This document shows, in pieces, positions 3,585 through 63,417 of a stretch of 64,000 nucleotides of DNA. A model generated the notes under the pieces. It had not been told where the DNA came from, made no database searches, and saw nothing but the letters and a program-made list of their open reading frames with translations. Made by a program: the position numbers and the translations under genes. The number at the start of each line of letters is the position of its first letter. The first letter of the stretch is position 1. The stretch covers positions 64,001 through 128,000 of IMG/VR virus record IMGVR_UViG_3300045988_145033; one strand, 5' to 3'. This stretch comes from a virus.

Positions 3585-3606
3585 GATACTCCCGCTAGGG
3601 AGTATC
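3585..3606. terminator. Hairpin GATACTCCC-gcta-GGGAGTATC overlapping the PolB-like stop codon
   Basis: Perfect 9-bp inverted repeat followed by T-rich sequence. Confidence 0.55.
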
Positions 3607-40229: not shown

Positions 40230-40883
40230 ATGAGAGGTTTCTTAAATAAACTAGAAGAAGTTAATAAAAAGAAAAGACCAAATCTTTATGGTGAAGCTGA
40301 TATAGATGGCTTCGATACATCTACATTTGATTTACCTGATTATATGGGAGCAGATAATGACCCAGTTCCACCAGAACCTGAACCAGAAGAACCAGAGTTT
40401 CAAGAACCTGAAGATGATACAGGAGATGATATACCAGAACCCGAGCCTGAAGAACCAGAGTTTACAGACCCTGACCCAGATGATGGCTTTGACCCTGAAA
40501 ACCCTGAACTTCAAGAAGATGCAGGAGAACCCGGAGATACTCCAAATGAAGACAACGCTTTTACAGAAGGGGAAGATGAGGATACTCCTGTATTTAGAAG
40601 AAAGACTAAAAAACTTAATAAAGCATTTGCATCTTTGTATGACCAATATAAAGACTTAATAGCAAAGCTTAAGAATATAGACGCTACAGGAGATAAGGCT
40701 ACAGTTATAAATACTTATATAGATGAGTATGAAGAAAACTTACAAGCCTTAGTTGAGTATGTAAATGATAATACTGATACTTGGGTTATAAGATTTCAAA
40801 CCTATGTAGAATTTCGTGCTACATTTGCAACTATTAATAAGAAACTGTCTTCTATAGAGGAAGATGTAAATATACTGTCGTAA
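40230..40883 (+). CDS. Acidic Pro/Glu-rich repeat protein (217 aa), candidate scaffolding or decoration protein upstream of the capsid gene
   Basis: PEPEPEEPEFQEPEDD / PEPEPEEPEFTDPDPDD tandem repeat. C-terminal helical region. Position next to the MCP candidate. Confidence 0.6.
   Translation: MRGFLNKLEEVNKKKRPNLYGEADIDGFDTSTFDLPDYMGADNDPVPPEPEPEEPEFQEPEDDTGDDIPEPEPEEPEFTDPDPDDGFDPENPELQEDAGEPGDTPNEDNAFTEGEDEDTPVFRRKTKKLNKAFASLYDQYKDLIAKLKNIDATGDKATVINTYIDEYEENLQALVEYVNDNTDTWVIRFQTYVEFRATFATINKKLSSIEEDVNILS
40371..40463 (+). repeat. Imperfect ~30-bp tandem DNA repeat CCAGAACC(T/C)GA(A/G)CC(A/T)GAAGAACCAGAGTTT (2 copies, 33 bp apart) encoding PEPEPEEPEF
   Basis: Copies at ~40371-40400 and ~40434-40463. 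Confidence 0.6.
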
Positions 40884-40949: not shown

Positions 40950-42704
40950 ATGGATAATAATACTATGCTTGTAAGAACAAGCTTACGTTCACCTAGCAAT
41001 GACGGTAAAGCTAGAGTTAAAGCATCTATCGTTGGTGTAAAAGACGTTCTTACTGGATTTAAACAATATGCGGAGTCTCAAGGGATTAACTTCTCTTCTA
41101 ACTCAGCACCTTCAGCTATGAAAGCTCATATGCAAGGATTAAAAGACCAAATGACTGCTAAAATAGTTGCAGACAGTCAAAGCACTAGATTTGGAAATGA
41201 CACGCAAGGAAGAGTTATGTATGCTGAAATGCAAAAAATAGCTAAATCAGACGTAGCAACAATAGGAGCAAGACTTGAAAATGAAATAAACCTATATGCG
41301 GAAGGTATGATGGCAGGGGAATATCACCCATTCCAACTTGCAATATTACCACACGTGTACTTAGAAACATTATCTCAAAATAGTAGATTTTTAATGCCTA
41401 CTAAAGAATATGTATCTGAACAATTACCACCAAGAAAAATGATTACAAGACAAGTGGTAATCGAAGGTAAGAAATATGACTTCCCTCATTGCTTAAAGAA
41501 TCCTGAAGTAATGAGAAAATTAAGAACTGCTGGAAGTAAAGCTATTGAATACAAATTAACAGATATGACAAAAACTGCATTTAATATCTTTACTGAATCT
41601 CATGAAGGAACTGTAGGAGAATCAACTCTTATTCCTCAACTTGACATCATAAAAGTAAAATACCATGATGCAGGAACAGCAGCAGATGAAGAAGTTGAAT
41701 TAAATGTATCTAATATAAACCCAGATGCACATAACTACACTATGGGTAGATTATTCAAAACTTTAAAATCACCGAAAGCAAATGCTACTACAGAAGTAAC
41801 TATATCAGCTGAAGTAAACTTTGCAACTGGAGATATTAAACTTATTAAATCTACTGAAGTAAAAGAAATTACATTCAGAGCTCATATGTCTGGAGCTTAT
41901 AATAGAAAATCAGCATCAATAGATATTGAAACTAAACCAATCATACAAGTGATTAAAAATAGAATCAATATGCTATTTGACTATGACCCGGGTTCAATGC
42001 AAAACTTCTTATCTTTAGAAAATATAGATGGAGTTTTGGAAGGACAATCTATTATATTCGACGTTGTTGTATCAGCAAAAGACCAATTTGTATTTGATAC
42101 ATTAAATGGAGTATTAGACCAATTAAAAACAGCAAAAGCTGCTGGTTTTGATTTTGAAAATTCAGATATGGGATACTATACTGGAACTCACTATACTAAA
42201 CCGGGGGTAACTAATGGATTTAGACCTACATCTCCTGAACAATGGGACATTGAAGAACTAGGAAGAAGAATGAAAGAAGTTCACACTAATATGGGAACTA
42301 AATTCAAATCTGTTTCTGGTTTACAATTCAACTGGTGGGCATCTCCAGTGAACACTGCAAGATTTATAAGAAGTACACCAATCTTAACTAAGAATGAAAA
42401 CTATGGTGGTATGACAAATGAATACGCTGTATATGGACTTCAAATAGCAGGACAAACTTGCAAAATGGTAGAAACTGAAAGAGCGTTAGATAATGAAGGA
42501 TTAAAATGTGTTCCTTATTCTAATATGGAATCTCAACCAACATTTGAATTCCAACAAGGACCACACGCATTATATACTGATGGAACATTCAGAAATCCAA
42601 CAAGACCTCATATGCCAGCTATAGCATACTATGATTACTATGATTGTAACTATATCTATGCAATACTTGGACATATTGATATCAAAGATACAGTTGCACC
42701 ATAA
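40950..42704 (+). CDS. Putative major capsid protein (584 aa)
   Basis: Strong RBS. Codon usage and GC are visibly different from the neighbours, consistent with high expression. It has a dedicated late promoter and a strong terminator, and follows an acidic scaffold-like gene. No motif-level proof. Confidence 0.45.
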   Translation: MDNNTMLVRTSLRSPSNDGKARVKASIVGVKDVLTGFKQYAESQGINFSSNSAPSAMKAHMQGLKDQMTAKIVADSQSTRFGNDTQGRVMYAEMQKIAKSDVATIGARLENEINLYAEGMMAGEYHPFQLAILPHVYLETLSQNSRFLMPTKEYVSEQLPPRKMITRQVVIEGKKYDFPHCLKNPEVMRKLRTAGSKAIEYKLTDMTKTAFNIFTESHEGTVGESTLIPQLDIIKVKYHDAGTAADEEVELNVSNINPDAHNYTMGRLFKTLKSPKANATTEVTISAEVNFATGDIKLIKSTEVKEITFRAHMSGAYNRKSASIDIETKPIIQVIKNRINMLFDYDPGSMQNFLSLENIDGVLEGQSIIFDVVVSAKDQFVFDTLNGVLDQLKTAKAAGFDFENSDMGYYTGTHYTKPGVTNGFRPTSPEQWDIEELGRRMKEVHTNMGTKFKSVSGLQFNWWASPVNTARFIRSTPILTKNENYGGMTNEYAVYGLQIAGQTCKMVETERALDNEGLKCVPYSNMESQPTFEFQQGPHALYTDGTFRNPTRPHMPAIAYYDYYDCNYIYAILGHIDIKDTVAP

Positions 42705-44080: not shown

Positions 44081-44872
44081 ATGGATAAAAGACCAAAGAT
44101 TATAACTCTTTATGGAGAGTCTGAAATATCAGCAACTCCTAGAAAGAGAATAGTTGATAGAAAATATGTAGGTAATCAAATAGTATGGGTACAAGAATGT
44201 CTTACATTTGGAAGAACTACAAGAAATGGAAATGATTTCTTAGAAGAAAACTTTAGAGAAGCAGTAGAAGACCCTTTCGTTAATGACAGATTAAAAGGTA
44301 ATAGATTCTTCTCAGAACTTGACCACCCTAGCAAAAGCGATACAGAAAGATTCGTGCAAGTATACTTACAAAATATAGCATATAGAAATAAGCACTTCTT
44401 CTTTGAAAATGGAACTATGTATTCTGAATGTGAAACTATAGATACTCCATCTGGAAAGATAGTAAGAACTCTTATAGAATCTGATGCTGAAATAGCTGTA
44501 TCTTTTAGAGGATATGGAGTGCCTAAACTTGACGGAAATGGAGAAACTATAAAGCTTGTAGCATTTGACGTTGTATATCAACCAAGTGACCCAACTTCAC
44601 TTTCAAGAGAAGAATCATTTAGAAATCAAATGTATGCAGAAGGATATAGTGCATCTGAGTTCGCAAGAATAGCAATGAGGGATAATTTAGTTGCTTATGA
44701 TACTATTCCTAAAAATTCAGGACTTTATGCTGAAGCTTCATTTGAAGGTATAAGACCTAAGCAAGTTATAAAATACGGAGATGACGTTTTAGGTATTACT
44801 TATGAAACTAAGGAAGAAATAGAAAGAAATGCTAAAGCTCAAGGATTTAGAAACTTTATCATAAATCTATAA
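44081..44872 (+). CDS. Hypothetical head-module protein (263 aa). Candidate prohead protease or scaffold by position only.
   Basis: ORF with CAGGAGG RBS. An AACA-ATTTTT-TG motif lies upstream. Confidence 0.6.
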   Translation: MDKRPKIITLYGESEISATPRKRIVDRKYVGNQIVWVQECLTFGRTTRNGNDFLEENFREAVEDPFVNDRLKGNRFFSELDHPSKSDTERFVQVYLQNIAYRNKHFFFENGTMYSECETIDTPSGKIVRTLIESDAEIAVSFRGYGVPKLDGNGETIKLVAFDVVYQPSDPTSLSREESFRNQMYAEGYSASEFARIAMRDNLVAYDTIPKNSGLYAEASFEGIRPKQVIKYGDDVLGITYETKEEIERNAKAQGFRNFIINL

Positions 44873-50826: not shown

Positions 50827-51315
50827 TTATTTGTCATCCATTGTAGCGTGGTCTGAGTCAATGATAGTTTGTTCAGGTTCTATTCTTTCGTCATTCATAT
50901 CACCTAAAGTAACTTCACCGTCAGCTTTATTTTCAGTTTCAGGCATTATATCTGTAGCTCCTACTTTAATAGAGTCTCCATCAATAACAGCACCTGCTCC
51001 TGCTTCTAATTGGTCTATTAATGATTCGTGGAATTTAGTAGCTTTGTCTATTTTACCTAAAGCTTCAGCATATTCAACTTCAACATTAACACTTTCTACA
51101 GTGTCACTTCCCGGTTCAACTGGTATATCTACAGTTATACTTGGAACTTCAGGAGCATCAGCATCTACATTAACTTCAGCCGTGTCACTTGCTTCTATTG
51201 AAACAGTTTGAGCATCATCTAAAGTGTCAGCTGGAGCTACTTCAGATTCTCCGTAAATATTTGGTTTATTGAATAAAGAGAAGTCTACTCCGTCTTTACC
51301 TATTTTTTGATACAT
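50827..51315 (-). CDS. Highly acidic hypothetical protein (162 aa)
   Basis: ORF with AGGAGG RBS. D/E/V/A-rich. Confidence 0.65.
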   Translation of the reverse strand: MYQKIGKDGVDFSLFNKPNIYGESEVAPADTLDDAQTVSIEASDTAEVNVDADAPEVPSITVDIPVEPGSDTVESVNVEVEYAEALGKIDKATKFHESLIDQLEAGAGAVIDGDSIKVGATDIMPETENKADGEVTLGDMNDERIEPEQTIIDSDHATMDDK

Positions 51316-52352: not shown

Positions 52353-53708
52353 CTATCTCTTCACCTCCGCTAAATCATCTAATAGGAACTTAGGGTCTTT
52401 TTGAGCTCCATCTATTGTAAGTTTTAGAAGATATAGTATTATAGGAACTATTAAGAAATCCTCTAAAGTATCATCAACTTCCAAATCTACAGTTTCATCT
52501 AAGATACTTGCTGGGTCTTCAGCTATTCTCATAATAGATGATATAATATCACTATCGCTATCCAAAAGCTTTTCTGAACTTTTCTTTAAACTGTCAAGCT
52601 CTACAAGAGTTGGAATCTTTTTAACATTCGAGCTATCCTTTATTAGATACTCAGCTGTCTTATCAGACGGTATTCCTATAGACATTAAAGCTACATTTGG
52701 AGATGCGAATTGATTTAACTGAGTTAGATATCTTTGCTTAGGAAACCATTTCATAAGCTTTGTATATCTTCCACCTACTTCAAATTCCTTTACATCAAAT
52801 CTTGAAAAATTACCCAAAAAAGAAGATAAGTCATCATAAGTTATATCACCATACATTGATTTTTCAAAATCAAATGGTGTCATATCCTCATGTGTGAGTA
52901 TAAGCTCACCTACATACTTTTGTGAAAACTCATACATTATAGGACGCATTCTTCTTTGAAACTCTACAAGCATAGGGGAGTAGTATATCATATCTATTGG
53001 GTGCTCGGGATTATCTTCACATACATGAGAATATAAAAGTAAATTATATTCTTCATTGTAAAACGTTTCCAAGTATTCATTATTAATTCTTGCATAAGTT
53101 GCAACTAGCTTTCTTATATAAGCTACCGTTCCTATATCTATGATAGTTACTTTATTGTCTCCAACATTACCCATCACAAAATCGTAATTTCCTACAGTTT
53201 GCTTTTCAAGTTGCTTAAACTTATCAGGGTCTTTGTCAGATACAGCATAATAAGTATAAGTTATATGATGATGAGGTTCTTGAAGTATCGTATTAGCATC
53301 AGCTCTTGTCACACGAAACATAAGTTCCTTTGCTCCCGGTAAGGATATTACAAGCAAATCTCCTACTTGTGGATAAAACCCCGGAAGAATTAAACTCTCA
53401 TTATCAAGCTCTATAGTTATACCTTTTATATCCGTCTTTCTAGTTTCCCTATTAAACTCTTTAAAGGCATAAAGCGGAGTATTATTAATTCTATTATATC
53501 TTACAGGTGAGTCTGGTGATAACCAGTCATATACTTGTCCCATACCTTTAGAACCCGTACTATCAGCATTTGATATATTATAGTATCTACAGAAGATAGG
53601 TTTTGACTCCATTCTTCTTACATTGTATTTATAGTATCTTCTCGCTTGATTTCTGAGCATCTTATTCGTCGTATCAACCGTTTGGTCTTTTAAATTCAAG
53701 GATTTCAC
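52353..53708 (-). CDS. Hypothetical protein (451 aa)
   Basis: ORF with RBS GGAGGTGAA. Confidence 0.7.
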   Translation of the reverse strand: MKSLNLKDQTVDTTNKMLRNQARRYYKYNVRRMESKPIFCRYYNISNADSTGSKGMGQVYDWLSPDSPVRYNRINNTPLYAFKEFNRETRKTDIKGITIELDNESLILPGFYPQVGDLLVISLPGAKELMFRVTRADANTILQEPHHHITYTYYAVSDKDPDKFKQLEKQTVGNYDFVMGNVGDNKVTIIDIGTVAYIRKLVATYARINNEYLETFYNEEYNLLLYSHVCEDNPEHPIDMIYYSPMLVEFQRRMRPIMYEFSQKYVGELILTHEDMTPFDFEKSMYGDITYDDLSSFLGNFSRFDVKEFEVGGRYTKLMKWFPKQRYLTQLNQFASPNVALMSIGIPSDKTAEYLIKDSSNVKKIPTLVELDSLKKSSEKLLDSDSDIISSIMRIAEDPASILDETVDLEVDDTLEDFLIVPIILYLLKLTIDGAQKDPKFLLDDLAEVKR

Positions 53709-53807: not shown

Positions 53808-55640
53808 ATGGAAGATATAACTTTATATGGAAATGAAGTTCTACCAGAAGTAAGAGAATATATGTATGCTGAAGCTGAAATGACAGTATCGTATAATTTA
53901 ATACAAGATTATTTCTTCAATCTTATGGATAGCTTTAGAGATGAAACTATATACTATGGTGAAGCTGATGATGATGGTGAAGTTAAAACTGGATTTTTTG
54001 CGAAGATAGGACAAATGTTTGTAAAGATGTGGAAAGCTATTATAAACTTTATTAAAACTGTATTTAGAAAAACTTGGGAAATACTTTCAAAACCATTCAG
54101 TTTTAAAATGAATAGAGCTAATAACTCGTCTGGTGGCGGAGGTGGCGGTGGCTCATCAACACCTACTGAAAGAACTGCTGGTGGAGGCGGTGCTGAAGAA
54201 ACTGCTAATAGAATAACTACTACAGATTTTAGACAATACCAAGAAATTGCAAACTTAAGAAGAAATCTAGTTTCATATCTTGGAAAAATGTCTACGGTAG
54301 AAAAGGATAAACTTTTAGCTACATTTGCTATAATGAAGGATGATAGTGTAAAAAATATAAGTCTTACTAAGATAGACAATAAAGGTACATACGATACACA
54401 CATAAAAAATATGGAAGCTATAAAGAAGAACTTGCTTGAAAACTTTAAACTTATATACGAATATGATGAGTTAAAGGATACAGATGCTATTAAAAACGTA
54501 GCAGCTACTCCAGCCATGAACCTTGTGTATAAGGAAGTACCAAAGCATTCTTTAATAAATGTAAAATATGAAAAGCCTAAAGAAGATGAAGAAGTAGTTA
54601 AAAAAGGAATAGCATCTCTATTCGGGATACAAATGATAGCTAAAAAGATTATAGAATGTACATCTAAAGTTACAGATACGACACAAACTGTTCAAAAGAA
54701 AAAGTCTGAAGCTAGTATAGCTAAAGATATTAAGAGTTTGATTAATACAATATTAGCGATAAATATGAGTGATACTGGAACTCACACTGGACTTATAACG
54801 GATAAGGATAATGATATAAAGGTATTTGGAGACTATAATATAGTAGAGCTTTCTAAAGCTGTTAATGTTATATACGTATACTCATTTGGAGAAGATGCTT
54901 TAAAATTACTTAAAAAAGACCCTACAGGTATAATACAAGCTAAATTAAATTCAAATACAGTAATAAAGCCAGAAGCATATGAAACTAATAAAGGTATATT
55001 CTTAAAGAAAATGGTTAATGTCAATATAGCTGACAAGGTGTTAGAAACTGTTCAAATTAAAGCCGATGGAAATCAACCAGAATCTTTAACTTCTATTCTT
55101 AGTAAAGAATTTAAAGCAGCCGAAGGCAAAAAACCAGCAACAACATATGATGCACTAAGAGACCAGCTACTTAATGCTTTAGCGACATTTAAAGATTTAA
55201 GAGAGAATAATGAAAAGAAAGATAACGATGGTAAAACTGAATATGATAAAATAACAGATGAAAATGAAGCAGTTAAAGCGTCTGATATGTGGAAAGGTAT
55301 AGTAACTAATGCTGCAAAGATAATTAAGAATGTAGCTAGTAGTGCACCAGAAATGGCAAGAACTATAACTAGAATAGATACAGCCATAGTTATACATAAG
55401 CACTTATATAATACTATTCTTAGTGTATCGGTTACTGCTAACTTATGGGACGTATATTGTCATATGTATAAGGTAGCTAAAGACAACTTAGAGAATAATA
55501 AAGAGTTGATAAAGGATACAACAGGAAGCGATGACGCTACTAAAGAGCACAAACTAATAAAAGAAAAGTTAGCAGCATTAGATACAGAAGTTGCAGATTT
55601 AAAAGTTCAACTACAAAAAGAACTTAAAGGAAAACAATAA
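53808..55640 (+). CDS. Paralog family member 1 (610 aa). N-terminal Y-x-E repeats, amphipathic/TM helix, poly-Gly linker and a long helical body. Putative internal head protein.
   Basis: LYGNEV, MYAEAE and YYGEADDDG. Then FFAKIGQMFVKMWKAIINFIKTVF. Then SSGGGGGGGSSTP. Confidence 0.7.
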   Translation: MEDITLYGNEVLPEVREYMYAEAEMTVSYNLIQDYFFNLMDSFRDETIYYGEADDDGEVKTGFFAKIGQMFVKMWKAIINFIKTVFRKTWEILSKPFSFKMNRANNSSGGGGGGGSSTPTERTAGGGGAEETANRITTTDFRQYQEIANLRRNLVSYLGKMSTVEKDKLLATFAIMKDDSVKNISLTKIDNKGTYDTHIKNMEAIKKNLLENFKLIYEYDELKDTDAIKNVAATPAMNLVYKEVPKHSLINVKYEKPKEDEEVVKKGIASLFGIQMIAKKIIECTSKVTDTTQTVQKKKSEASIAKDIKSLINTILAINMSDTGTHTGLITDKDNDIKVFGDYNIVELSKAVNVIYVYSFGEDALKLLKKDPTGIIQAKLNSNTVIKPEAYETNKGIFLKKMVNVNIADKVLETVQIKADGNQPESLTSILSKEFKAAEGKKPATTYDALRDQLLNALATFKDLRENNEKKDNDGKTEYDKITDENEAVKASDMWKGIVTNAAKIIKNVASSAPEMARTITRIDTAIVIHKHLYNTILSVSVTANLWDVYCHMYKVAKDNLENNKELIKDTTGSDDATKEHKLIKEKLAALDTEVADLKVQLQKELKGKQ

Positions 55641-55650
55641 TAAAATTAAT

Positions 55651-55672
55651 ACTCCACCATTACGGTGGAGTA
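55651..55672. terminator. Bidirectional terminator ACTCCACC-attac-GGTGGAGT
   Basis: Perfect 8-bp stem between convergent stops at 55640 and 55676. Confidence 0.7.
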
Positions 55673-55675
55673 TCT

Positions 55676-57310
55676 TTATTTATCATCGTCATCACTTTTT
55701 ACAGATATATAATATAGTGCTTGTACTACAGTTGATATATCTTCTTGAATCTTTTTATAGAATGGATTATTTACATTTCTTATAAATTTTTGAGATATAT
55801 CTACAATCTTTGATACAACCAGTGTTATATTGATACTACGATTTAAAATATTTTCTAATGCTATCTTTGTAGAATACTCATCGAATTGTAAAGTTTCATC
55901 TGATTGAAATTCATTTAGTTTATCTCTTATTTCCTTACCTTTACTATGTAGAGCATTTATAGATTTTGATAAATCGTTTAGTTCTATCGTATTATCGTCT
56001 ATAACCTTCATAAGTTTAGCTGTTATTCTAGTTTCTATATCAGCTAAATCAGAACGAGCTATAGCATAAACAGTTTTCTCATTATCGCTTAATTTTCTAA
56101 ATTCAGAGAAAACTAAAGTATTTTTGATTTCAGCTAAATTAGAATTTCTAACGAACTTCATATCTTGTAGTATACTCGCAAGTGTATTTAAAGTCTTATC
56201 GTCAAGTATAGGTATATTCTGAACCTTACCTTTAGTTTCGTTTATAATTCTACTTTCAAGTTTAGCGACATCTGGACTTCCTTTTAACTTATCGTCTATA
56301 GACAGTATAAGATTCGTGTATTCTGTTGCTGATTTTTCCGATAATCCCTCAAATACAGTAGAGTACCCTGTATTAATTTCTTTCTGCAACTGTGTTATTT
56401 CAGCGTCTGTAGGCTTTCTATTTGCATTACCGTCCGTATCAATCTTAATTCTTTTTATAGTCATTATAGAATTTGGAGTAGTCTGATAAATCATAGCAAC
56501 CAACATAAGAGAGTCAGCATTTATAAGAGTATCGGTCATGAAATCTGCTATAAAATATTTACCACCTTTAGACAAAGCTTGTATTTTTTCAACTTTATCG
56601 AAATATGTATCAATATCTTCGAAATCCTCAAAAGGATATTGTCTTAAAATATCGCTATATTTAGTTCCGTCAAATGCTTTATCTTCAGCGATATTTCCAC
56701 GAACAACATCAAGAACAAGATTTGCTATATCTTTTGATATAACAAATACACCATTTGATGTCTTGTCTATATCAACTCTTATATCCTTTACAGCTTCCCT
56801 ACTTATATCATTTATCATCTCGTCAGTTAAAGGTTTACCTTCTTCGTTGCTTATAATATTATCAAGTCTTTTACGTATTCTTAAAGTAGCTTCTCCGTCT
56901 CTTAAACCGCCATATTTACGTATAGCTTCTTTAGCTCTTAATGTCATCATCTTAAGATTAGCCGCTCTTATAATTTCAGGTTGACGTCCGACTCTTCCAA
57001 TATTTACAGAAGAGTAGTCTGAACCTCCACCTCCACCCGAATAAATGTCAACACGGTCTCCTTTTAGTTTATCTTTGACTTTCTTGAATATGAAGCTAAA
57101 GATACCGAATATAACAGTTTTAATTCCCATCAATATTTTAAGCAATAAAGATATAGCCGATTTAGCCATATTTCCTATAGCTTGAAAGATAGACTTTACA
57201 GATTCATCATAAAGTCTAAGTTTATTTTCTGTCTCTATTCTATCCTTTAAAGCTTGTAGCTGATATGTAGCAGCTACAGCTTCGTAATATTCTATAGAAT
57301 AATCTTCCAT
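55676..57310 (-). CDS. Paralog family member 2 (544 aa)
   Basis: YYEAVAA; hydrophobic AISLLLKILMGIKTVIFGIFSFIF; SGGGGGSDYSS linker. Confidence 0.7.
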   Translation of the reverse strand: MEDYSIEYYEAVAATYQLQALKDRIETENKLRLYDESVKSIFQAIGNMAKSAISLLLKILMGIKTVIFGIFSFIFKKVKDKLKGDRVDIYSGGGGGSDYSSVNIGRVGRQPEIIRAANLKMMTLRAKEAIRKYGGLRDGEATLRIRKRLDNIISNEEGKPLTDEMINDISREAVKDIRVDIDKTSNGVFVISKDIANLVLDVVRGNIAEDKAFDGTKYSDILRQYPFEDFEDIDTYFDKVEKIQALSKGGKYFIADFMTDTLINADSLMLVAMIYQTTPNSIMTIKRIKIDTDGNANRKPTDAEITQLQKEINTGYSTVFEGLSEKSATEYTNLILSIDDKLKGSPDVAKLESRIINETKGKVQNIPILDDKTLNTLASILQDMKFVRNSNLAEIKNTLVFSEFRKLSDNEKTVYAIARSDLADIETRITAKLMKVIDDNTIELNDLSKSINALHSKGKEIRDKLNEFQSDETLQFDEYSTKIALENILNRSINITLVVSKIVDISQKFIRNVNNPFYKKIQEDISTVVQALYYISVKSDDDDK

Positions 57311-57322
57311 TTTATCACTTCC

Positions 57323-58765
57323 TTATTTTAAAAATTCAGCGAAATTAGTTCTAATGAATTCTTCGTTTTCTTTATCGTCTCCAGATACAAGTTGTAATAG
57401 ATTTTTCTCTTTACCTTTTATCTTTCCAGTTATGTTATTTAGTATATCTCTTCTCATGTTATGGAATATTTTACTATCTATTACATTTTTAACAACTTGT
57501 CCAATTTGTACCGAATACATAACTGAAGATGTCATAGCTATCGTAACGGTAATCCATTTATTTATTTCAGATATTATACCTTTATCTTCAATAGCATTAT
57601 TCTCATCTAAGTTATCTACTATAGACTTTATAGAATTTTGATATCCTGATAGTTTTCCAATTTTTTCTTTTATTGTTTTTATTTTACTATCGTCAATATC
57701 TTTACCTTCTGCTAGTTCACTAAATATACTATATATTTTTGATTGATTGCTTATTTTTTCAGCGTTAAATGAGATTTGTAAATTCATTCTTTCATCATCA
57801 GCACTATCATTATCAAATTCCCAAGTAAAATTATAAAATGTGCTCATTAAATTCTTATGACTTTCTGATTTTATTTGTAGAACTTTAGATATATCACCGT
57901 AGTTTAAAATGTTCTTTGGAGATGCACTGTCAGTATATAGTTTAGATAAAACTTCGTTCGAATCTTTTTCAAATTTATCCACAGACTCTTTATTACTGAA
58001 ATCAACACTTTGAGTTTTTAATGGAGCTAGTAAAGCTATTAAATCTTCTTGCACATCTTTATATAAAGACTTTGTAGTATTTGCAATATTAGAACTTACA
58101 CCTATAGCTGTACCGTCGACTTTCCCGATATATCTATTCACATTTAATTGAGTTGCAGCAGATAGTAGTAATATACCCGGTGCATTTAATACCGTTTCTA
58201 ATATGAATTTAGGAAAAGTATCGTCATTGTCACTAGATACAATCTTTTTAAACTCAGCATTTGATTTATTATAGCTCTCATCATTTAATAAAACGACTGG
58301 TTCGCTCATATTGCTGTATTTATCTCTTATCGTAGACAATGTCGCTCCTTCGAAAACTTTATTCATAAGTTCAGACCTTATTTTTAATTTAGGTGTGCTA
58401 GAAGATGAGCCTCCACCACCTCCACCACCGAAAGAAATACCATTACCTTTCTTTCTTCTGAAATACATAATAAGTCCTATAATTACTAAAAGTAGTAGTC
58501 CTTTTATTCCTAATACCATTTTAAGTATAATAAGTATAGCTTTCTTTATGAATACTAAAAGTGCCGCAAATATTCCTCCAACGCTTTCAGCATACATTAT
58601 TTCTCTTCTTTGATACATCTCAAGCATTACTCTACCTTCTTCTAAAGCCATATAACTTTCGCAAATAGCAAGCTCATCAACTTCAGGAATTTCAATATCA
58701 CGATGTCTGCTACTATTATCAATATCAGCTACAGACTCCATATATAAATTTACTATATTATCCAT
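57323..58765 (-). CDS. Paralog family member 3 (480 aa)
   Basis: YMESVAD and MYAESVGG; long hydrophobic GGIFAALLVFIKKAILIILKMVLGIKGLLLLVIIGLIMYF; FGGGGGGGSSSSTP linker. Confidence 0.7.
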   Translation of the reverse strand: MDNIVNLYMESVADIDNSSRHRDIEIPEVDELAICESYMALEEGRVMLEMYQRREIMYAESVGGIFAALLVFIKKAILIILKMVLGIKGLLLLVIIGLIMYFRRKKGNGISFGGGGGGGSSSSTPKLKIRSELMNKVFEGATLSTIRDKYSNMSEPVVLLNDESYNKSNAEFKKIVSSDNDDTFPKFILETVLNAPGILLLSAATQLNVNRYIGKVDGTAIGVSSNIANTTKSLYKDVQEDLIALLAPLKTQSVDFSNKESVDKFEKDSNEVLSKLYTDSASPKNILNYGDISKVLQIKSESHKNLMSTFYNFTWEFDNDSADDERMNLQISFNAEKISNQSKIYSIFSELAEGKDIDDSKIKTIKEKIGKLSGYQNSIKSIVDNLDENNAIEDKGIISEINKWITVTIAMTSSVMYSVQIGQVVKNVIDSKIFHNMRRDILNNITGKIKGKEKNLLQLVSGDDKENEEFIRTNFAEFLK

Positions 58766-58796
58766 ATTAAACCTCCATTTTTTTTTGTTTTTAATC

Positions 58797-58808
58797 TAAA
58801 ACGCTGTT
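58797..58808 (-). promoter_or_regulatory. Late-type promoter AACA-GCGTTT-TA-GATTAAAAACAAAAAAAAATGGAGG
   Basis: Full consensus upstream of 57323..58765. Confidence 0.55.
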
Positions 58809-58837
58809 TTAAAGGTATTTATAAGATAAAAAAAAAT

Positions 58838-58855
58838 AATACCCCGAAGGGTATT
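58838..58855 (-). terminator. Terminator AATACCC-cgaa-GGGTATT
   Basis: A9 tract plus a perfect stem after the stop of 58871..60109. Confidence 0.6.
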
Positions 58856-58870
58856 ATTTTATCATATAAT

Positions 58871-60109
58871 TTATTCCTTAGCTGTAGAAGTTTGCACATT
58901 TTTCAATTTATCTAAAGATGTACATAAAGGTTTTACATAACCGATAAATCTATCAAGTTGTATTTTACCTGTGTTGAATGCAGTTACAACAGCTGTAGAA
59001 ACTCTTGTCATGTATGTAGAGTACACAGTAGATATTCTCATAAGAGCAGACGCGTTATCTTTTACATTTTGATTTTCATTTTCTTTATCAGTACGGTCAT
59101 TATAAATACCTTCGGCTTTATTTTCGATTCTTGCCATTAATTTCTTCAAGTCGTCGATTTTTTCTTTATATTCAGATACACCTTTATCTAAAGCGTCTTC
59201 TATATCATCATATACGATATTTTTAGCCGCACTATTTAATTTAGCTATAGCTTTAGGTATATCTCCTCCTTTCTTAACTGTGTCAGCTTTAGAATCCCAT
59301 AATTTTGCAATAGCTTCTGCTGGTTTTTGAGTTGAAGTGTCACCGAATATAGCACCATTTAAGTCAGGGTCAGTAATACCACCATTTTTTATAGCACTAT
59401 CGTATATGTATCTGACTAATGATTCGTCGTCTCTCATATGTCTAGCTTGTTGAACATCTTTAAATAGCCCTTCAACAGTTTTACCAGCACCTTCACTAGC
59501 AGATTTTAAATCTGTAATCTTTTCTAGTTCTTCAGTTAATTTTGAAATCGTTACAGTTTCTCCAGTTTTATCAGTTAAATTAATTTGTAGTAAAGTTTTA
59601 GTTCTTGTTGTAGCACCCTTAGCTAGTTTACTTCCTATAGTACCCATAATTATATTAGATATAGCTTCGTAAGCATAATCTTTAAAACTTATTTTATCGT
59701 CTTCATTGAAAGTTGTAAGTTTAGAAACTTTGTCTAATACATCTTTAATGTATTGAATATCCATTCTGTAGTTTTTGTTAGCTTTGAATCTTCCTAATAA
59801 TTTGATTACAAAGTCTTTTGCTTTTTCATACAATTTAACGATAGCTGCTATAATCTTTTTGAAGAACCCACCTTCAGCTTCTCCATACATAATAGCTCCT
59901 ACTAAAGATAGTCCTTTAGAATCCATTAATTCTTGAGTAGCTTCAGCATATAAAACACCATTTCTTTCCATATTTGCAGACGCTTCAGCATAAGCCATGA
60001 ATGATTCCATTAAGTCGGCTTCAGATGCTTCAGGTACTCCACCGTATAATGTTCCATGTTGTGGTAATGTTGCTTCACGATACAATTTCATGAATGTATT
60101 TTCTGACAT
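58871..60109 (-). CDS. Paralog family member 4 (412 aa)
   Basis: LYREAT, LYGGVPEA, AYAEASA, LYAEATQ and MYGEAEGG repeats, followed by FFKKIIAAIVKLYEKAKDFVIKLL. Confidence 0.7.
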   Translation of the reverse strand: MSENTFMKLYREATLPQHGTLYGGVPEASEADLMESFMAYAEASANMERNGVLYAEATQELMDSKGLSLVGAIMYGEAEGGFFKKIIAAIVKLYEKAKDFVIKLLGRFKANKNYRMDIQYIKDVLDKVSKLTTFNEDDKISFKDYAYEAISNIIMGTIGSKLAKGATTRTKTLLQINLTDKTGETVTISKLTEELEKITDLKSASEGAGKTVEGLFKDVQQARHMRDDESLVRYIYDSAIKNGGITDPDLNGAIFGDTSTQKPAEAIAKLWDSKADTVKKGGDIPKAIAKLNSAAKNIVYDDIEDALDKGVSEYKEKIDDLKKLMARIENKAEGIYNDRTDKENENQNVKDNASALMRISTVYSTYMTRVSTAVVTAFNTGKIQLDRFIGYVKPLCTSLDKLKNVQTSTAKE

Positions 60110-60153
60110 ATTTTATACCTCCTAGTTATTTTAAAATTTATTTTGTTTTAATC

Positions 60154-60165
60154 TACACCTATGTT
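60154..60165 (-). promoter_or_regulatory. Late-type promoter AACA-TAGGTG-TA-GATTAAAACAAAATAAA
   Basis: Full consensus upstream of 58871..60109. Confidence 0.5.
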
Positions 60166-60270: not shown

Positions 60271-63200
60271 ATGTCTGATATAAAAAGAATAGCATTTATA
60301 CCCTATGACAAGAAGCATAGAAACTATACGGAAGCTGATATTGTTGTAGGGGAGCTTATTATAGATAGCGAGACAGGTTATGCGTGGATAAAAGTTAAAT
60401 CAGGCGATTTGATTCCACTTCGTGGTGCAGGATATATAGATTTGATAAACTATATCGCTTCCACTATGGCGATAGGAATAGAGCCTAAAGATATACATTC
60501 ATTCTTACTAGATACAGCAAAAAGAATTCCTAATGAGAATATACCTACAGGTGTTTTAAAAGTAAGAGTACCGAAAGGAACTTCTACAGAATTTAAAGAA
60601 ATAGGAATAGTTACAAATGGAGAAAATTGTATAATATACACAGGAGAAAAAGATAGTGTCACACAAGAACCTATCACAGTTACAGTAAAGGACGTTTATT
60701 TAGACTATTCTAAATTTAAGAAAGAAACTAAAGAAACTCTTGCAGACCATACTACAAGAATTACATCTTTAGAAACTGAAATAGCTCAAAGAGCAAAAGA
60801 TACTAAAACTTTCTATGATAAATTTACAGAAGCTGAATCTGCTGATTTGGTTTATTGTATTCACCCAGATATGACAGCAACTAAACCAACAGAACCCACA
60901 AACTACATATTTGAGACTTCTATGGTTTTACATATGGATAATGGAGAGTCTGTAAATAGACACTCACTTGGATATCATATGGATTACAAAAATCACAGAA
61001 TAGATAAAGATAATGCTTATGTAAAGGACATAGGTAATAAGGTAGATTTATCTGTAAGATTTTATTATAAAAATGAATGTATTTGGGTACAACCTACTCA
61101 AATAGACGGTGAGTTTATTTTAAGAGATAAATCACCAAACGCTGGCTCATTTGTACCTTATAAAGGACAAGTTACAAAAGAATCATTTGCAGCATCAGGT
61201 TTAACACCGGGAGATTTAATAATTCCTTTAGGTTCTTCTAATAATGAAGAATCTGTATCTTGGACTTATTATCAAGCAAATCATGGTTTTCCACCTATGA
61301 GTGCTGTATACTTTGATAAAGAAGATAATAAATGGAAACTAGCAACTTTAAAGAATAGAGCTAAAAATATAGCAATTCCTATAGATGAGAACTGGCTTAC
61401 TATATATTCGGCTGGACATATTAAAGTACCAGAAAATGCTAAAGCTAACTTAAGTGATGAAGATTTCGTATCTAATGAAATGTACTACTTAAGCCAAACT
61501 ATAAATGGTGGATTTCAAAAAGAATATCCAACTTATATTTATCAGGAACTAGGATACGCTTATATGAAATACGGTTCTATGTGGTTTGCAATTCATATAG
61601 ATACACCAGTTGAACTTGCAGCTTACACTATTAAGAATATGGCAACTAAAGAAGATTTAAAGAATAGACAACTTGTGGTACAAGTAGCAACTCCGGATAT
61701 AGCAAAGCTTGATGAACCATTAGGAACTGTAATGACAGTCGCTGATGATAGTGGAGAAGAAACTTGGCATATAAGAAAGGTACAAGAAACTAGAAAAGAT
61801 AGTGAAAGTATACAAATAAGAAATGGTTTATGGGCAAATATCATCGAAGTATCTGGTAAGATAAAAGAAGAGGATATGGCTGGTAAACTAGATAAAGGTA
61901 TAAACTTTGCAAAATATAAAGCTGAGTATCCAGATGCTGTTGCTATTATAGAAAAGATAATAAATGGTATAGGGTATAAAACTGGAGATAGATTAAAGAC
62001 TTGGCAAGAGCTTATGGAAGATTTAGAAAAGTATGTAAAGAAAGAGCAAATAACTCAATCTATGACAGAAAATAGTATAGATAAAATACCTTCTGCTAAT
62101 ATCTTTAATCAACTTCTAAAACTTGTACAAGATATTAAACTCGGACATACTGGAAGTATAGTACCGCAAGAAAATACAGCGGTACATATTCAATCTGGTA
62201 TACTTCAAAGAACTGCTGTGACTATTCAATCGAATGTAGACGTTTTATACAATCCTACATTATTTATAGACGGTCAGCAATACGATAGAGCTTACTGGTC
62301 ATTTGATGCAAATACTGGTATCATAACTTTAAAAGAGCCTTATGATATGTATACAGATGCTAGATGGACAATATTTGACGTATTTCCTACAGATATTAAA
62401 TATATATCAAATAGTGTAGGAGCAATTCAAATAGCACCTTATGCTAACTCGCTTAAAGATTATGACGTCATAAAATGTCTTGGAGAAAATTCAAAATACG
62501 ACGGTGGTTATCAACTACGTATGGTTGTACCAGAATCTGATATTACAAACTCGTCATCTCAATGGCATTTCTTAGCTAGTCAACCTAGAGTAAAATTTAA
62601 AAATAAATGGCTTGTAGAGCTTCCAAAAACTCACGTAAAAAGAGAACTTGAAAGAAAGTTAGAAAAAGAAATATTTGACGCATATGTTAAAAAGAATGCA
62701 GTATATACTTTAGAAGATGTAGGATACGATAATATCGAAGGTATAGGATACGTGAAGGGTAAATATAAACTTAAATCTGAAAATGAGCTTACATTAAGAT
62801 TTAATATAAAGGTCACTAAAGACTTACTTGTACAACCGCCACAAGGACAAACAGAAGACCCTTTAAAGAATATGCAAATGGATTATTTAAGATTTGTAGC
62901 TAATCTTCCAGAAGGTATAGAGAAGAGTGATTTATTATTTGAGTATGCTCAAGTTTCAGTATACGATTATAAAGAAGAGCCAGATTTTATAGATGTCGAT
63001 GAATATAACTTCACTGATAGTTCCAGTCAAACTCATCAAAGAAAGACTAGAATTAAGAAATTTGGTTTTGGAATTATGTATCAGTATACTTCAGATGTAA
63101 GACCGCTTACAAAATACGACGGACTTTCAAGTAGACCTACTCCTAGTGGAAATAAAAATAGAGACGGTTCACTTGAGTATATGGACGATATGTCGGTAAA

Positions 63201-63417
63201 CTATGACGTTTATAATGAGCTTAAAACTAGAGATAAGAATAATAATGTTATAGGAGAAGGAAGATTTGGAACTAATCCAATGGAACCGAAGTTCCCTAAT
63301 CATAACGCATTTATTCTTTTAATTCAAAGATACTTTGAAGGTTTGGCTGTAGGTTTTAATAAGCACTTATTTGAAGACTACTACTTAAATGTGACTATTA
63401 AAATACCTATGAGATAA
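60271..63417 (+). CDS. Large hypothetical structural protein (1048 aa), candidate tail or fibre component
   Basis: Long ORF with TAAGGAGG RBS inside a late-promoter-driven structural region. No recognisable motif. Confidence 0.7.
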   Translation: MSDIKRIAFIPYDKKHRNYTEADIVVGELIIDSETGYAWIKVKSGDLIPLRGAGYIDLINYIASTMAIGIEPKDIHSFLLDTAKRIPNENIPTGVLKVRVPKGTSTEFKEIGIVTNGENCIIYTGEKDSVTQEPITVTVKDVYLDYSKFKKETKETLADHTTRITSLETEIAQRAKDTKTFYDKFTEAESADLVYCIHPDMTATKPTEPTNYIFETSMVLHMDNGESVNRHSLGYHMDYKNHRIDKDNAYVKDIGNKVDLSVRFYYKNECIWVQPTQIDGEFILRDKSPNAGSFVPYKGQVTKESFAASGLTPGDLIIPLGSSNNEESVSWTYYQANHGFPPMSAVYFDKEDNKWKLATLKNRAKNIAIPIDENWLTIYSAGHIKVPENAKANLSDEDFVSNEMYYLSQTINGGFQKEYPTYIYQELGYAYMKYGSMWFAIHIDTPVELAAYTIKNMATKEDLKNRQLVVQVATPDIAKLDEPLGTVMTVADDSGEETWHIRKVQETRKDSESIQIRNGLWANIIEVSGKIKEEDMAGKLDKGINFAKYKAEYPDAVAIIEKIINGIGYKTGDRLKTWQELMEDLEKYVKKEQITQSMTENSIDKIPSANIFNQLLKLVQDIKLGHTGSIVPQENTAVHIQSGILQRTAVTIQSNVDVLYNPTLFIDGQQYDRAYWSFDANTGIITLKEPYDMYTDARWTIFDVFPTDIKYISNSVGAIQIAPYANSLKDYDVIKCLGENSKYDGGYQLRMVVPESDITNSSSQWHFLASQPRVKFKNKWLVELPKTHVKRELERKLEKEIFDAYVKKNAVYTLEDVGYDNIEGIGYVKGKYKLKSENELTLRFNIKVTKDLLVQPPQGQTEDPLKNMQMDYLRFVANLPEGIEKSDLLFEYAQVSVYDYKEEPDFIDVDEYNFTDSSSQTHQRKTRIKKFGFGIMYQYTSDVRPLTKYDGLSSRPTPSGNKNRDGSLEYMDDMSVNYDVYNELKTRDKNNNVIGEGRFGTNPMEPKFPNHNAFILLIQRYFEGLAVGFNKHLFEDYYLNVTIKIPMR

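Follow-up and report, generated by a model that had tools for sequence, protein, structure and literature searches.

Four genes and their common N-terminal module

The window analyzed here is a stretch of 64,000 nucleotides from a viral record (IMG/VR IMGVR_UViG_3300045988_145033, positions 64,001 to 128,000). The phage, which encodes a phiKZ-type multisubunit RNA polymerase, is classified from its sequence as a ~180 kb Fusobacterium myophage of the phiKZ/AR9 supergroup. Four genes in the window, called A to D below (Table 1), have exactly the coordinates and strands given in the initial annotation, and are neighbored by a head–tail-joining-like gene and a conserved virion-type gene of 1048 aa. 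The promoter-like motif found upstream of A, C and D is shared with the probable capsid gene described below (6 matches against 0.71 expected, all rightly positioned). Since B starts 12 nt past the end of C, these two genes are probably co-transcribed.

Table 1. Coordinates of genes, predicted protein features and DNA elements in the window
Feature	Position	Strand	Details
Gene A	53808..55640	+	610 aa
A, predicted sites	Y20-A-E22 53865-53873; Y50-G-E52 53955-53963	+	acidic propeptide aa 1-52
A, basic amphipathic helix	53988-54104	+	aa ~61-99
A, hinge	54132-54158	+	G7SS aa 109-117; second G4 54180-54191; variable helical body beyond
Gene B	55676..57310	-	544 aa
B, predicted sites	Y8-Y-E10 57281-57289; Y34-D-E36 57203-57211	-	propeptide aa 1-36
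B, hydrophobic helix	57080-57202	-	aa 37-77; hydrophobic enough for a membrane span
B, hinge	57020-57037	-	G5S aa 92-97; body paralogous to C body
Gene C	57323..58765	-	480 aa
C, predicted sites	Y8-M-E10 58736-58744; Y58-A-E60 58586-58594	-	propeptide aa 1-60
C, hydrophobic segment	58460-58585	-	~42 aa; opens with predicted mature N-terminus SVGGIFAALLV...
C, hinge	58397-58429	-	G7S4 aa 113-123; preceded by RRKK
Gene D	58871..60109	-	412 aa
D, predicted sites	Y10 60074-60082; Y40 59984-59992; Y54 59942-59950; Y75 59879-59887	-	propeptide aa 1-77
D, amphipathic helix	59786-59878	-	aa 78-108; AEGGFFKKII...; without poly-Gly
Promoter-like motif AACAGCNNTTTAGWTTAAAA	53759..53778	+	upstream of A, 1 mismatch
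Promoter-like motif AACAGCNNTTTAGWTTAAAA	58789..58808	-	upstream of C, exact
Promoter-like motif AACAGCNNTTTAGWTTAAAA, degenerate copy	60146..60165	-	upstream of D, 3 mismatches
Bidirectional hairpin terminator	55648..55674		between convergent A and B
Terminator-like hairpin	58833..58860	-	after D, upstream of C promoter motif
Predicted prohead protease, T4 gp21/phiKZ gp175 family	44081..44872	+	263 aa; catalytic H82, S141, D163
Probable major capsid protein	40950..42704	+	584 aa; propeptide aa 1-118, 40950-41303
Replaceable segment	54177..59630		~5.4 kb, contains the bodies

Scored with the strict pattern Y-x-E-[A/S/G], A, B and C have two sites each and D has four, with none in the remaining ~1650 residues. 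The stacking of N-terminal sites reported in the initial annotation is borne out, with two to four sites per protein, all in the first 77 residues; one of its examples in A, LYGNEV, reads Y-G-N-E and is not a Y-x-E motif. The predicted propeptides are acidic (charge -5 to -10) and the following 60 residues basic (+5 to +8). All four proteins have a helix after the last site, as had been noted, but only those of B and C reach membrane-span hydrophobicity (19-residue Kyte-Doolittle means of 2.07 and 2.67; hydrophobic span of 25-50 aa), while those of A and D are basic and amphipathic, with a hydrophobic moment of 0.58-0.71 and a Kyte-Doolittle maximum of about 1.0. Likewise, the poly-glycine run ascribed to all four is present in A, B and C but missing from D. 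The bodies are K/E-rich as described (K+R 12-15%, D+E 14-16%).

The four had been viewed as one paralogous family, which holds over the full length for B and C only. Comparison by hhalign aligns their N-terminal modules with a probability of 99.6% (E 1e-23) and their bodies with 98.1% (E 9e-14). Matches limited to the module join A with C (85%, E 6e-6), A with D (68%, E 5e-5) and C with D (69%, E 4e-5); the A–B and B–D module pairs are not significant by hhalign, and neither the body of A nor that of D has any match (probability <1%). BLAST relates A and D to the others at E values of 0.001-0.02 in a small database. When an HMM of each module was compared with all ORFs in the window, the top non-self matches were the other three members (E 0.001-0.4). 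By these profile comparisons, A to D have an N-terminal module of ~100 residues in common, attached to bodies of three unrelated kinds, and the likeness of the modules is consistent with either homology or convergence on a single functional design. No match to A–D was found in Pfam or PHROGs. With a pLDDT of 35, the AlphaFold2 (AF2) model of C cannot be used to assign a fold to the body; at low confidence, it predicts a largely helical secondary structure. Two further ORFs had been linked to this set: the one at 1-1035 (-) is no relative, being without the module, while that at 12748-14679 (-) does have the promoter-like motif but not the module, and matches tail-tube-like and virion-structural families.

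A prohead protease and matching sites in head proteins

The Y-x-E motif is a signal across the window and is not confined to A–D. There are 21 occurrences of Y[GA]E[ASG] in the window against 1.25 expected, a 17-fold enrichment, and 15 against 1.05 outside A–D. In the first 100 residues of A–D, 6-7 sites were found where 0.1 are expected, a number reached by none of 200 shuffles. On the negative side, a few copies occur in proteins unlikely to be in heads, such as the DNA polymerase-like product of 3595-6012 (residue 620).

The initial annotation had proposed looking for a gp21- or gp175-like protease in the genome, and one was found in the window itself, at 44081-44872. Its match to Peptidase_S77 (PF03420, 27.2 bits) is barely above the gathering cut-off of 27, that to phrog_207 has an E value of 2.5e-17, and the protein is 99% identical to the ‘prohead core protein serine protease’ of phage JD-Fnp4. 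Aligned with gp21 of cyanophage P-HM1 and the protease of Pseudomonas phage Ettore, it shows its catalytic triad in invariant ELxHP, VSxRGxG and DxVxxPS motifs. Glu at P1 is a hallmark of the gp21 protease family. Sites for autocleavage are predicted near both termini of the enzyme (Y11-G-E13, Y185-A-E187 and Y216-A-E218). At the position of Y185-x-E187, the aligned T4-type and Pseudomonas-phage enzymes have I-Y-E and then G/S; in lineage L012 the protease sites are displaced by a constant +130 residues. The family domain and the triad are common to T4 gp21, phiKZ gp175 and SPN3US gp245, and one predicted C-terminal autocleavage site lies where T4-type enzymes have I-Y-E, whereas the aromatic P3 of the substrate rule, deduced from sequence only, sets the present enzyme apart. 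For SPN3US gp245, a His-Ser-Asp triad (PMC5694885) and removal of a C-terminal propeptide (PMC10052503) have likewise been described.

We are moderately confident that 40950-42704 encodes the major capsid protein. Foldseek, run on a low-confidence model (pLDDT 48, TM ~0.2), and a PDB profile search, with a marginal match (E 0.02), both point to the major capsid protein of phage S6, and the gene order resembles that of phiKZ gp119-gp120. A divergent 118-residue N-terminus precedes highly conserved sequence, and contains sites at Y40-A-E42, [Y/H]-A92-E93 and Y116-A-E118 that are invariant in a family with 50-76% identity.

Conservation was assessed in lineage L012, with orthologs 37-65% identical, where all nine sites keep Y/F and E; of 14 other Y-x-E triples taken as controls, 6 do so (Fisher p = 0.006). 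A member of the A–D family there lies inside the head-gene block, adjoining the capsid gene and the protease. Across 25 divergent representatives the module is retained, its junction reading N-h-[Y/H]-x-E-[A/S]-[V/A]-G-x-[I/L]-[F/I], and of the 72 unique sites in the family, 67 have Tyr at P3. From these sites we infer a cut-site consensus of [L/M]-Y-[A/S/G]-E, probably cleaved before [A/S/G], with Tyr at P3 and rarely His or Phe.

Variation among related phages

In comparison with JD-Fnp1, JD-Fnp4 and L010, DNA identity is 94% in the left flank of the replaceable segment and 89% in the right flank, with only short patches of 67-80% identity inside. Identity breaks off at 54175/54176, just past the Gly/Ser hinge of A, and returns at 59630-59735, corresponding to residues ~125-160 of D. 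Between phages the N-terminal module of A is 80-100% identical and its body ~20-50%; for A and D considered together, the values are ~80% for the modules and 25-40% for the bodies. The protease and the capsid protein are 98-99.8% identical, and the relatives have four to six genes of the family. It appears that the bodies are swapped or fast-diverging among otherwise near-identical phages, which fits host-interacting cargo.

Proposed role and alternatives

We consider it likely that A–D are late-expressed internal head proteins, serving as cargo or in ejection, that are trimmed by the protease and injected. The proposal in the initial annotation of stacked prohead-protease sites on capsid-packaged proteins agrees with all available in silico tests, namely the protease, the motifs in the capsid protein and the protease, conservation in L012 and kinship to phiKZ and AR9. 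Packaging, cleavage, ejection and membrane insertion are each inferred. The acidic propeptide (36-77 residues with two to four sites) would target the protein to the assembling prohead core, much as the capsid-targeting sequence of T4 and the propeptides of phiKZ and SPN3US do, and may also mask the adjoining helix. The prohead protease would then cut after each Glu, fragmenting the propeptides of A–D, and would also trim the capsid protein and itself. The last cut would leave a Gly-rich helix as the new N-terminus of the mature protein, of membrane-span type in B and C (SVGGIF...) and amphipathic and basic in A and D (GGFFKK...), and the Gly/Ser hinge of A, B and C could serve as a flexible tether from this helix to the variable, mostly helical body. 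At infection, A–D would be ejected from the head alongside the DNA, and their helices would contact the host membrane. As a counter-point to packaging, a membrane-spanning helix would have to avoid the membrane of the producer cell.

The closest parallels are in phiKZ (gp92-gp97, gp162 and gp163; PF12699) and SPN3US (gp53/gp54), where, as with A–D, a clustered multigene set in a phage of the phiKZ supergroup encodes cargo with acidic N-terminal propeptides and several x-x-E sites for a gp21/gp175-type protease. Direct kinship to the phiKZ inner-body paralogs was not found: a Pfam scan of A–D at E <= 0.1 gave no match to PF12699, and BLASTP of all family members against phiKZ gp85-gp97 returned a best E value of 0.013, over short stretches. 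The phiKZ inner proteins also differ in having no poly-Gly and, as judged by reading rather than by computed hydrophobicity, no evident hydrophobic helix in the first ~220 residues. Propeptides are 36-77 aa in A–D versus 111-254 in phiKZ and SPN3US, and unlike in those sets, paralogy over the bodies is limited to B and C. The motif of the phiKZ protease is S/A/G-x-E. At P3, A–D have Tyr and SPN3US has Ala (AXE; PMC10052503); the SPN3US paralogs gp53/gp54 have propeptides of 125-137 aa cut at several AXE sites (PMC10052503). Inner proteins of phiKZ type are packaged in the head, coinjected with the DNA and found on the membrane-derived early vesicle (bioRxiv 10.1101/2024.03.24.586471).

T4 IPI, IPII, IPIII and Alt resemble A–D in that otherwise unrelated proteins begin with a conserved short propeptide that has x-x-E at its end. 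This capsid-targeting sequence, removed by gp21, loads non-conserved internal proteins into the head for injection, and their divergence has been ascribed to an arms race, as between IPI and a type IV restriction enzyme (PMC9026906). It differs in having ~10 residues, one site and the motif L/I-x-E, and its T4 cargo consists of small, soluble basic proteins without a post-cleavage hydrophobic helix or Gly hinge. A second class of parallels comprises virion-stored proteins that, once ejected, insert into the host envelope or cross it: T7 gp14-16, P22 gp7/gp20/gp16, the N4 ejection proteins and the hydrophobic segments of siphophage tape-measure proteins. None of the podophage ejection or tape-measure proteins is known to be activated by a prohead protease exposing an N-terminal helix, and the phage described here is a contractile-tailed myovirus, unlike the podophages with ejection proteins. 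The comparison with this class draws in part on PMC13434306 and PMC6795507.

Several other readings were weighed against internal head proteins. It is quite unlikely that A–D are instead scaffold or core proteins, degraded and expelled at maturation like T4 gp22, gp67 and gp68. The promoter motif common to the capsid gene, the protease motifs, the helical K/E-rich bodies and the L012 member in the head module would suit such a role, and gp21 is known to act on the core proteins of T4 (PMC9026906). However, the sites are restricted to the first 77 residues and absent from the bodies of 330-560 residues, which would therefore outlast proteolysis; conservation is the norm for essential scaffolds, yet between phages the bodies of this family show ~20-40% identity against 98-99.8% for the capsid protein; and the copy number varies from four to six.

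It is very unlikely that B and C, perhaps along with A and D, act as membrane proteins in the infected cell (for example in superinfection exclusion, lysis control or prohead anchoring) rather than as virion parts, even though the helices of B and C reach membrane-span hydrophobicity and are followed by a basic patch, and hypervariability suits exclusion or defence. A and D share the module yet are too weakly hydrophobic to span a membrane, the hydrophobic segment, in contrast to a signal anchor, lies 36-60 residues in and is preceded by acidic sequence, the promoter type is that of the capsid gene, and the statistics, placement and conservation of the motif link these N-termini to the prohead protease.

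We regard as highly improbable that A–D are receptor-binding, tail or surface proteins in which an N-terminal anchor bears a hypervariable host-range domain and Y-x-E is not proteolytic. Tail fibres classically show such a conserved N-terminus joined to a C-terminus that is abruptly swapped among near-identical phages, and the genes flanking the cassette would also be in keeping with it, but A–D match no tail-fibre, tail-spike or baseplate family in Pfam or PHROGs, the predicted structure is mostly helical and not beta-rich (AF2 of C, low confidence), and fibre anchors are not known to combine an acidic propeptide with a helix of hydrophobic or amphipathic type. Moreover, the motif recurs at the predicted autocleavage positions of the protease and in the propeptide of the capsid protein and is conserved across lineages, and the L012 member sits among head genes. 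The idea that Y-x-E arose by chance or from composition, or serves for docking and not for cleavage, on four unrelated proteins draws on the weak pairwise similarity that A and D show to the other members. It is extremely improbable: the enrichment, the shuffles, the positional conservation in L012 and the ranking of the module HMMs largely refute it, and the Glu at P1 also speaks against it.

For the internal head proteins favored here, what appears to be new is the protein family, its Tyr-P3 cut-site sequence and the rapidly swapped bodies; protease-processed paralogous head proteins are established in T4, phiKZ, 201phi2-1 and SPN3US, and no new principle is therefore involved. If confirmed, our reading would give the gp21/gp175 proteases, a widespread family, a new substrate rule with Tyr at P3, allow sequence-based prediction of head cargo for these Fusobacterium nucleatum phages, a clade being explored for therapy, and provide a compact capsid-targeting module usable for loading foreign proteins, as with the T4 sequence. 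It would also identify candidate virion-delivered, host-membrane-engaging and rapidly diversifying proteins, likeliest to be the first to meet host defences.

A more far-reaching version, which we think rather unlikely, is that the module is a portable loading-and-arming device, in which an acidic address peptide sends whatever body is attached to the prohead, a protease cut unmasks a fusion-peptide-like membrane helix as the new N-terminus only within the capsid, and a Gly/Ser hinge completes the design, on polymorphic, injected, membrane-tethered effectors that are cassette-swapped between strains. If true, the cassette would represent a phage analogue of polymorphic toxin/effector systems and could indicate a type of injected protein that might remodel the host membrane around incoming DNA; membrane handling at DNA entry is an open question in the jumbo-phage relatives (bioRxiv 10.1101/2024.03.24.586471). 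The end of the hinge of A coincides, at the DNA level, with the left breakpoint of identity; as a conjecture, this hinge may act as a recombination joint.

A shared N-terminal module on different bodies

The neighbouring genes A–D lie exactly at the coordinates of the initial annotation (Table), which had described them as a four-member paralogous family. Searches of Pfam and PHROG with the four proteins gave no significant family, only sub-threshold noise, and BLASTP detects weak links among them that are confined to the first ~100 residues. Using profiles built from orthologs in the Fusobacterium nucleatum myophages JD-Fnp1 and JD-Fnp4 and in metagenomic contigs, hhalign matched B to C in both the N-terminal module (probability 99.6%, E 1e-23) and the body (98.1%, E 9e-14), while A–C (E 6e-6), A–D (E 5e-5) and C–D (E 4e-5) match in the module and have no match in the body. 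HMMs of the module, run against all ORFs of the window, returned the other three members as the best non-self matches and nothing else. These profile comparisons argue against four full-length paralogs: the correct description is that A–D have an N-terminal module in common and bodies of three unrelated types (A, B/C and D). Within the proposed family, B and C are related throughout; for A and D the likeness is confined to the module and may reflect homology or convergence towards a single working design. ORFs 1–1035 and 12748–14679, suggested as relatives with the same promoter type, lack the module in the HMM search and were rejected as relatives, although 12748–14679 does have the promoter-like motif.

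Features of the window discussed in the text
Feature	Position	Strand	Length	Remarks
ORF	1–1035	-		
805-aa protein	1121–3538	-	805 aa	sites Y240, Y256, Y294, Y366
AACAGCNNTTTAGWTTAAAA	3562–3581			upstream of 1121–3538
GNAT acetyltransferase	8204–8713	-		phrog_3810, E 2e-22
ORF	12748–14679	-		
AACAGCNNTTTAGWTTAAAA	14705–14724			upstream of 12748–14679
Fused RNA polymerase beta/beta'-like protein	21693–24485	+	930 aa	phrog_2986, 2962, 3015; single Y-S-E-A site, residue 371
ORF	36273–37745			
ORF	38755–40212			
217-aa protein	40230–40883	+	217 aa	
AACAGCNNTTTAGWTTAAAA	40897–40916			upstream of capsid gene
Probable major capsid protein	40950–42704		584 aa	
Predicted prohead protease	44081–44872		263 aa	motif at residues 11, 185, 216
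162-aa protein	50827–51315	-	162 aa	
Head-tail-joining-like protein	52353–53708	-		PF24214, E 5e-12; phrog_3013 'virion structural protein'
AACAGCNNTTTAGWTTAAAA	53759–53778			upstream of A
A	53808–55640	+	610 aa	sites Y20, Y50
Gly run	54132–54191			
Bidirectional hairpin terminator	55648–55674			between convergent A and B
B	55676–57310	-	544 aa	sites Y8, Y34
Gly run	57020–57037			
C	57323–58765	-	480 aa	sites Y8, Y58
Gly run	58397–58429			
AACAGCNNTTTAGWTTAAAA	58789–58808			upstream of C
Terminator	58833–58860			after D
D	58871–60109	-	412 aa	sites Y10, Y40, Y54, Y75
AACAGCNNTTTAGWTTAAAA, degenerate copy	60146–60165			upstream of D
Conserved protein	60271–63417	+	1048 aa	

In all four proteins, the net charge is -5 to -10 before the last predicted cleavage site and +5 to +8 in the following 60 residues. 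The segment after this site had been annotated as an amphipathic or transmembrane helix, and both kinds are present: in B and C its hydrophobicity would suffice to span a membrane (the 19-residue Kyte-Doolittle mean peaks at 2.07 and 2.67, respectively; span 25–50 residues), while A and D have a basic amphipathic helix there (hydrophobic moment 0.58–0.71, Kyte-Doolittle maximum about 1.0). The poly-Gly run followed by Ser, expected in every member, occurs in A, B and C and is absent from D. Between orthologs the Gly runs vary from G3 to G10, often followed by S2–S8. An origin of these runs by DNA slippage was rejected, as they use mixed GGT/GGA/GGC codons and G5–G10 is kept in members that share less than 50% identity. 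For C, the AF2 model computed with a 14-sequence alignment hints at a long helix at residues 31–105, a disordered hinge and a helical body, but its pLDDT of 35 makes it unusable for a fold search.

An exhaustive search of 1.84 billion representatives with a B/C profile retrieved only 28 proteins. Nearly all full-length matches have the same order of elements: an 'LY-x-D/E' start, internal h-Y-x-E-[A/S/G] sites, a junction N-h-[Y/H]-x-E-[A/S]-[V/A]-G-x-[I/L]-[F/I], ~45 hydrophobic residues (FIKSAI...LKI.LGFKG...), a basic patch, G5–G10 and poly-Ser. Given this order, the protein left by the last cut would begin with the Gly-rich hydrophobic helix; such a helix exposed by predicted cleavage, together with the Gly hinge, appears to be new. 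A word-indexed homolog search with a 13-member alignment found same-clade A- and C-type proteins only, and a tblastn search of all phage records with the C module recovered nothing but the cassette (the region of family genes), and that weakly. The searches point to a new, unannotated family restricted to one phage clade.

Predicted cleavage sites, prohead protease and probable capsid protein

The motif is a real signal that extends over the whole window. In a simple scan, h-Y-x-E-[A/S/G] also turned up outside A–D, and Y[GA]E[ASG] occurs 21 times in the window against 1.25 +/- 1.04 expected from residue-shuffled proteins, and 15 times outside A–D against 1.05 expected, with none of 200 shuffles reaching either count. 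The annotated stacking of short Y-x-E motifs near the N-termini of A–D was borne out, with two to four strict sites in each protein; all copies fall within the first 100 residues (6–7 against ~0.1 expected), and the remaining ~1650 residues have none. Among 72 unique family sites, P3 is Tyr in 67, His in three and Phe in two, P4 is Leu/Met, P2 is Ala/Ser/Gly, and the last site has Val-Gly at P2'-P3', with Glu at P1 and Ala/Ser/Gly at P1' fixed by the search pattern. In five head-module proteins with orthologs in the divergent metagenomic lineage L012 (37–65% identical), the aromatic residue and Glu are kept at 9/9 strict sites, compared with 6/14 control Y-x-E triples (Fisher p = 0.006). From these patterns we infer a new cleavage rule with Tyr at P3.

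The search for a T4 gp21-like or phiKZ gp175-like protease proposed in the initial annotation led to ORF 44081–44872, which by sequence is the prohead protease, a member of the T4 gp21 family. It scores 27.2 bits against Peptidase_S77 (cut-off 27) and E 2.5e-17 against phrog_207 'head maturation protease', and shares 99.2% identity with the JD-Fnp4 protein annotated as 'prohead core protein serine protease'. By tblastn, its more remote matches are proteases of the gp21 type from T4-like, phiKZ-like and other jumbo phages; a search of PDB sequences found nothing significant. The motif is also present in the protease itself (Table), and in the L012 protease the three sites are displaced by exactly +130 residues, the length of its N-terminal extension. 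At the position aligned with the site at 185–187, a cyanophage gp21 and a Pseudomonas-phage enzyme have I-Y-E and then G/S, which fits the T4 cleavage rule, L/I-x-E. This alignment also fits the C-terminal autocleavage documented for SPN3US gp245 (PMC10052503). The catalytic blocks ELxH82P, VS141xRGxG and D163xVxxPS are intact in the alignment with the same two enzymes, and correspond to the His-Ser-Asp triad described for gp245 (PMC5694885).

We are moderately confident that the 584-aa protein is the major capsid protein. Its gene adjoins the 217-aa gene upstream, in the same order as phiKZ gp119 and gp120, and the protein is 98–99.8% identical among JD-Fnp phages. In a nine-member alignment (50–76% identity), the first ~118 residues are the most divergent, yet they still keep Y40-A-E42, [Y/H]-A92-E93 and Y116-x-E118, with strongly conserved sequence directly after. 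Foldseek with the AF2 model ranked the capsid protein of Staphylococcus jumbo phage S6 first (7x30, E 3e-7, probability 1.0, TM ~0.2), followed by P1 and phiKZ capsids, which is weak corroboration only given the poor model (pLDDT 48). An independent sequence-profile search of the PDB also placed the S6 'major structural protein' on top (E 0.02), while PDB searches with the single sequence and with ORFs 1121–3538, 36273–37745 and 38755–40212 found nothing significant.

Replacement of bodies and expression of the cassette

The window belongs to a relative of JD-Fnp1, 4, 6 and 7 (~175–180 kb), whose genomes match the A–D region at 92–94% nucleotide identity in the flanks only. Because the window encodes a multisubunit RNA polymerase beta/beta', a phrog_3011 polymerase, a large terminase and several 'virion structural' PHROGs, and the polymerase 21693–24485 best matches Bacillus phage BpSp and the Staphylococcus jumbo phage MarsHill by tblastn, with phiKZ-like phages next, we place this 180 kb phage, on sequence grounds, as a small member of the phiKZ/AR9 supergroup. 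The phiKZ nuclear-shell protein chimallin (gp54) matched 102 phage records by tblastn and no Fusobacterium record, including the JD-Fnp clade; there is therefore no evidence of a phage nucleus in this clade at BLAST sensitivity, and we draw no link to that lifestyle.

In 50-residue bins, residues 1–100 of A and D show 72–100% identity to JD-Fnp1 and JD-Fnp4, versus 16–50% in the body of A and 20–64% in that of D, where the last bin recovers to 64%. Across all collected sequences the A and D modules are ~80% identical versus 25–40% for their bodies, and B and C diverge throughout; in the same genomes the protease and capsid protein are 98–99.8% identical. DNA identity is 94% from the left flank up to 54175/54176, just past the Gly/Ser hinge of A, and resumes at 89% at 59630–59735 (D residues ~125–160); a replaceable segment of ~5.4 kb thus lies between the 5' modules of A and D, which face outwards. 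This cassette-like replacement of bodies is a new observation. Since the Gly tract of A ends at the identity breakpoint, the Gly/Ser tract might be both a hinge in the protein and a joint for recombination. Relatives carry four to six family genes and occasionally an extra gene.

The promoter-like motif AACAGCNNTTTAGWTTAAAA occurs six times in the window versus 0.71 expected, every copy on the coding strand ~30–35 nt upstream of a start codon, and may be a late promoter in this group of phages; a sigma-70 promoter scan of the window was not above chance (41 versus 36.7). B and C are probably co-transcribed because B starts 12 nt past the end of C. L012 has a single family member. It sits within the head block, flanked by the ortholog of 38755–40212 on one side and by the gene pair for the 216-aa and capsid proteins on the other, and the protease gene follows closely downstream. 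The head-tail-joining-like gene at the left border of the cassette is, unlike the cassette, nearly identical in all relatives. The extra gene of some relatives (528 aa; e.g. 1396–2982, minus strand, in record L001; JD-Fnp4_48) lies between this gene and A, has one KKLYAE-SF site and no poly-Gly, and is absent from the window; in L009 (8287–9883) it is split into ORFs of 285 and 230 aa.

Probable head cargo and further candidates

A–D are probably head cargo. This reading draws on the observed statistics, placement and conservation of the motif, on a protease that is present with intact catalytic residues, on the shared late-type promoter motif, on the pattern of hydrophobicity and charge, and on the contrast between a conserved module and variable bodies; from these we infer targeting, cleavage, head retention, ejection and membrane engagement. 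The propeptide would target the proteins to the prohead core, where the protease would cut after each Glu; the mature proteins, with the helix now N-terminal, would remain in the DNA-filled head until ejected, and the helix would then engage the host membrane. We conjecture that the acidic amphipathic helix of the propeptide, next to the membrane-spanning helix, could mask it and so keep it out of the producer-cell membrane.

Protease-processed, head-packaged and injected proteins are established biology in the phiKZ/AR9 supergroup, and by analogy A–D may act like the inner-body or ejection proteins of phiKZ and SPN3US and the CTS-bearing internal proteins of T4. In SPN3US, the paralogs gp53 and gp54 have propeptides of 125–137 residues with several AXE sites at which they are cut (PMC10052503). 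PF12699 is common to the phiKZ inner-body proteins, which are proteolysed and injected and co-localise with the membrane-derived early vesicle (bioRxiv 10.1101/2024.03.24.586471); A–D are not members of PF12699, because this domain was tested and not found, and BLAST of the family members against phiKZ gp85–97 gave nothing. The module/body split resembles T4 internal proteins, in which a conserved targeting peptide is decoupled from non-conserved cargo, a decoupling attributed to an arms race (PMC9026906). The 130–155 nm heads of JD-Fnp1 and JD-Fnp4 in negative stain, with a 180 kb genome (PMC9670143), give by rough estimate a weak hint of room for substantial protein cargo.

Several other proteins in the window carry the motif. 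The GNAT acetyltransferase starts MILYGE followed by AQ, a perfect site after residue 6; by analogy with T4 Alt, this enzyme may be packaged in the capsid and injected, its propeptide then being very short. The 805-aa protein has no family match and four clustered sites, and may belong to the head, with a very long propeptide (~368 aa); long propeptides have been reported for jumbo-phage portal proteins, to which we liken it. The 1048-aa neighbour of the cassette, with no Pfam or PHROG match, has N-Y-T-E followed by A at residues 18–22, a possible short propeptide. The 217-aa protein, encoded directly upstream of the probable capsid gene in a phiKZ gp119-like position, and the 162-aa protein have in common K-[K/R]-P-N-[L/I]-Y-G-E followed by A/S at residues ~14–23, which suggests propeptides of ~22 residues.
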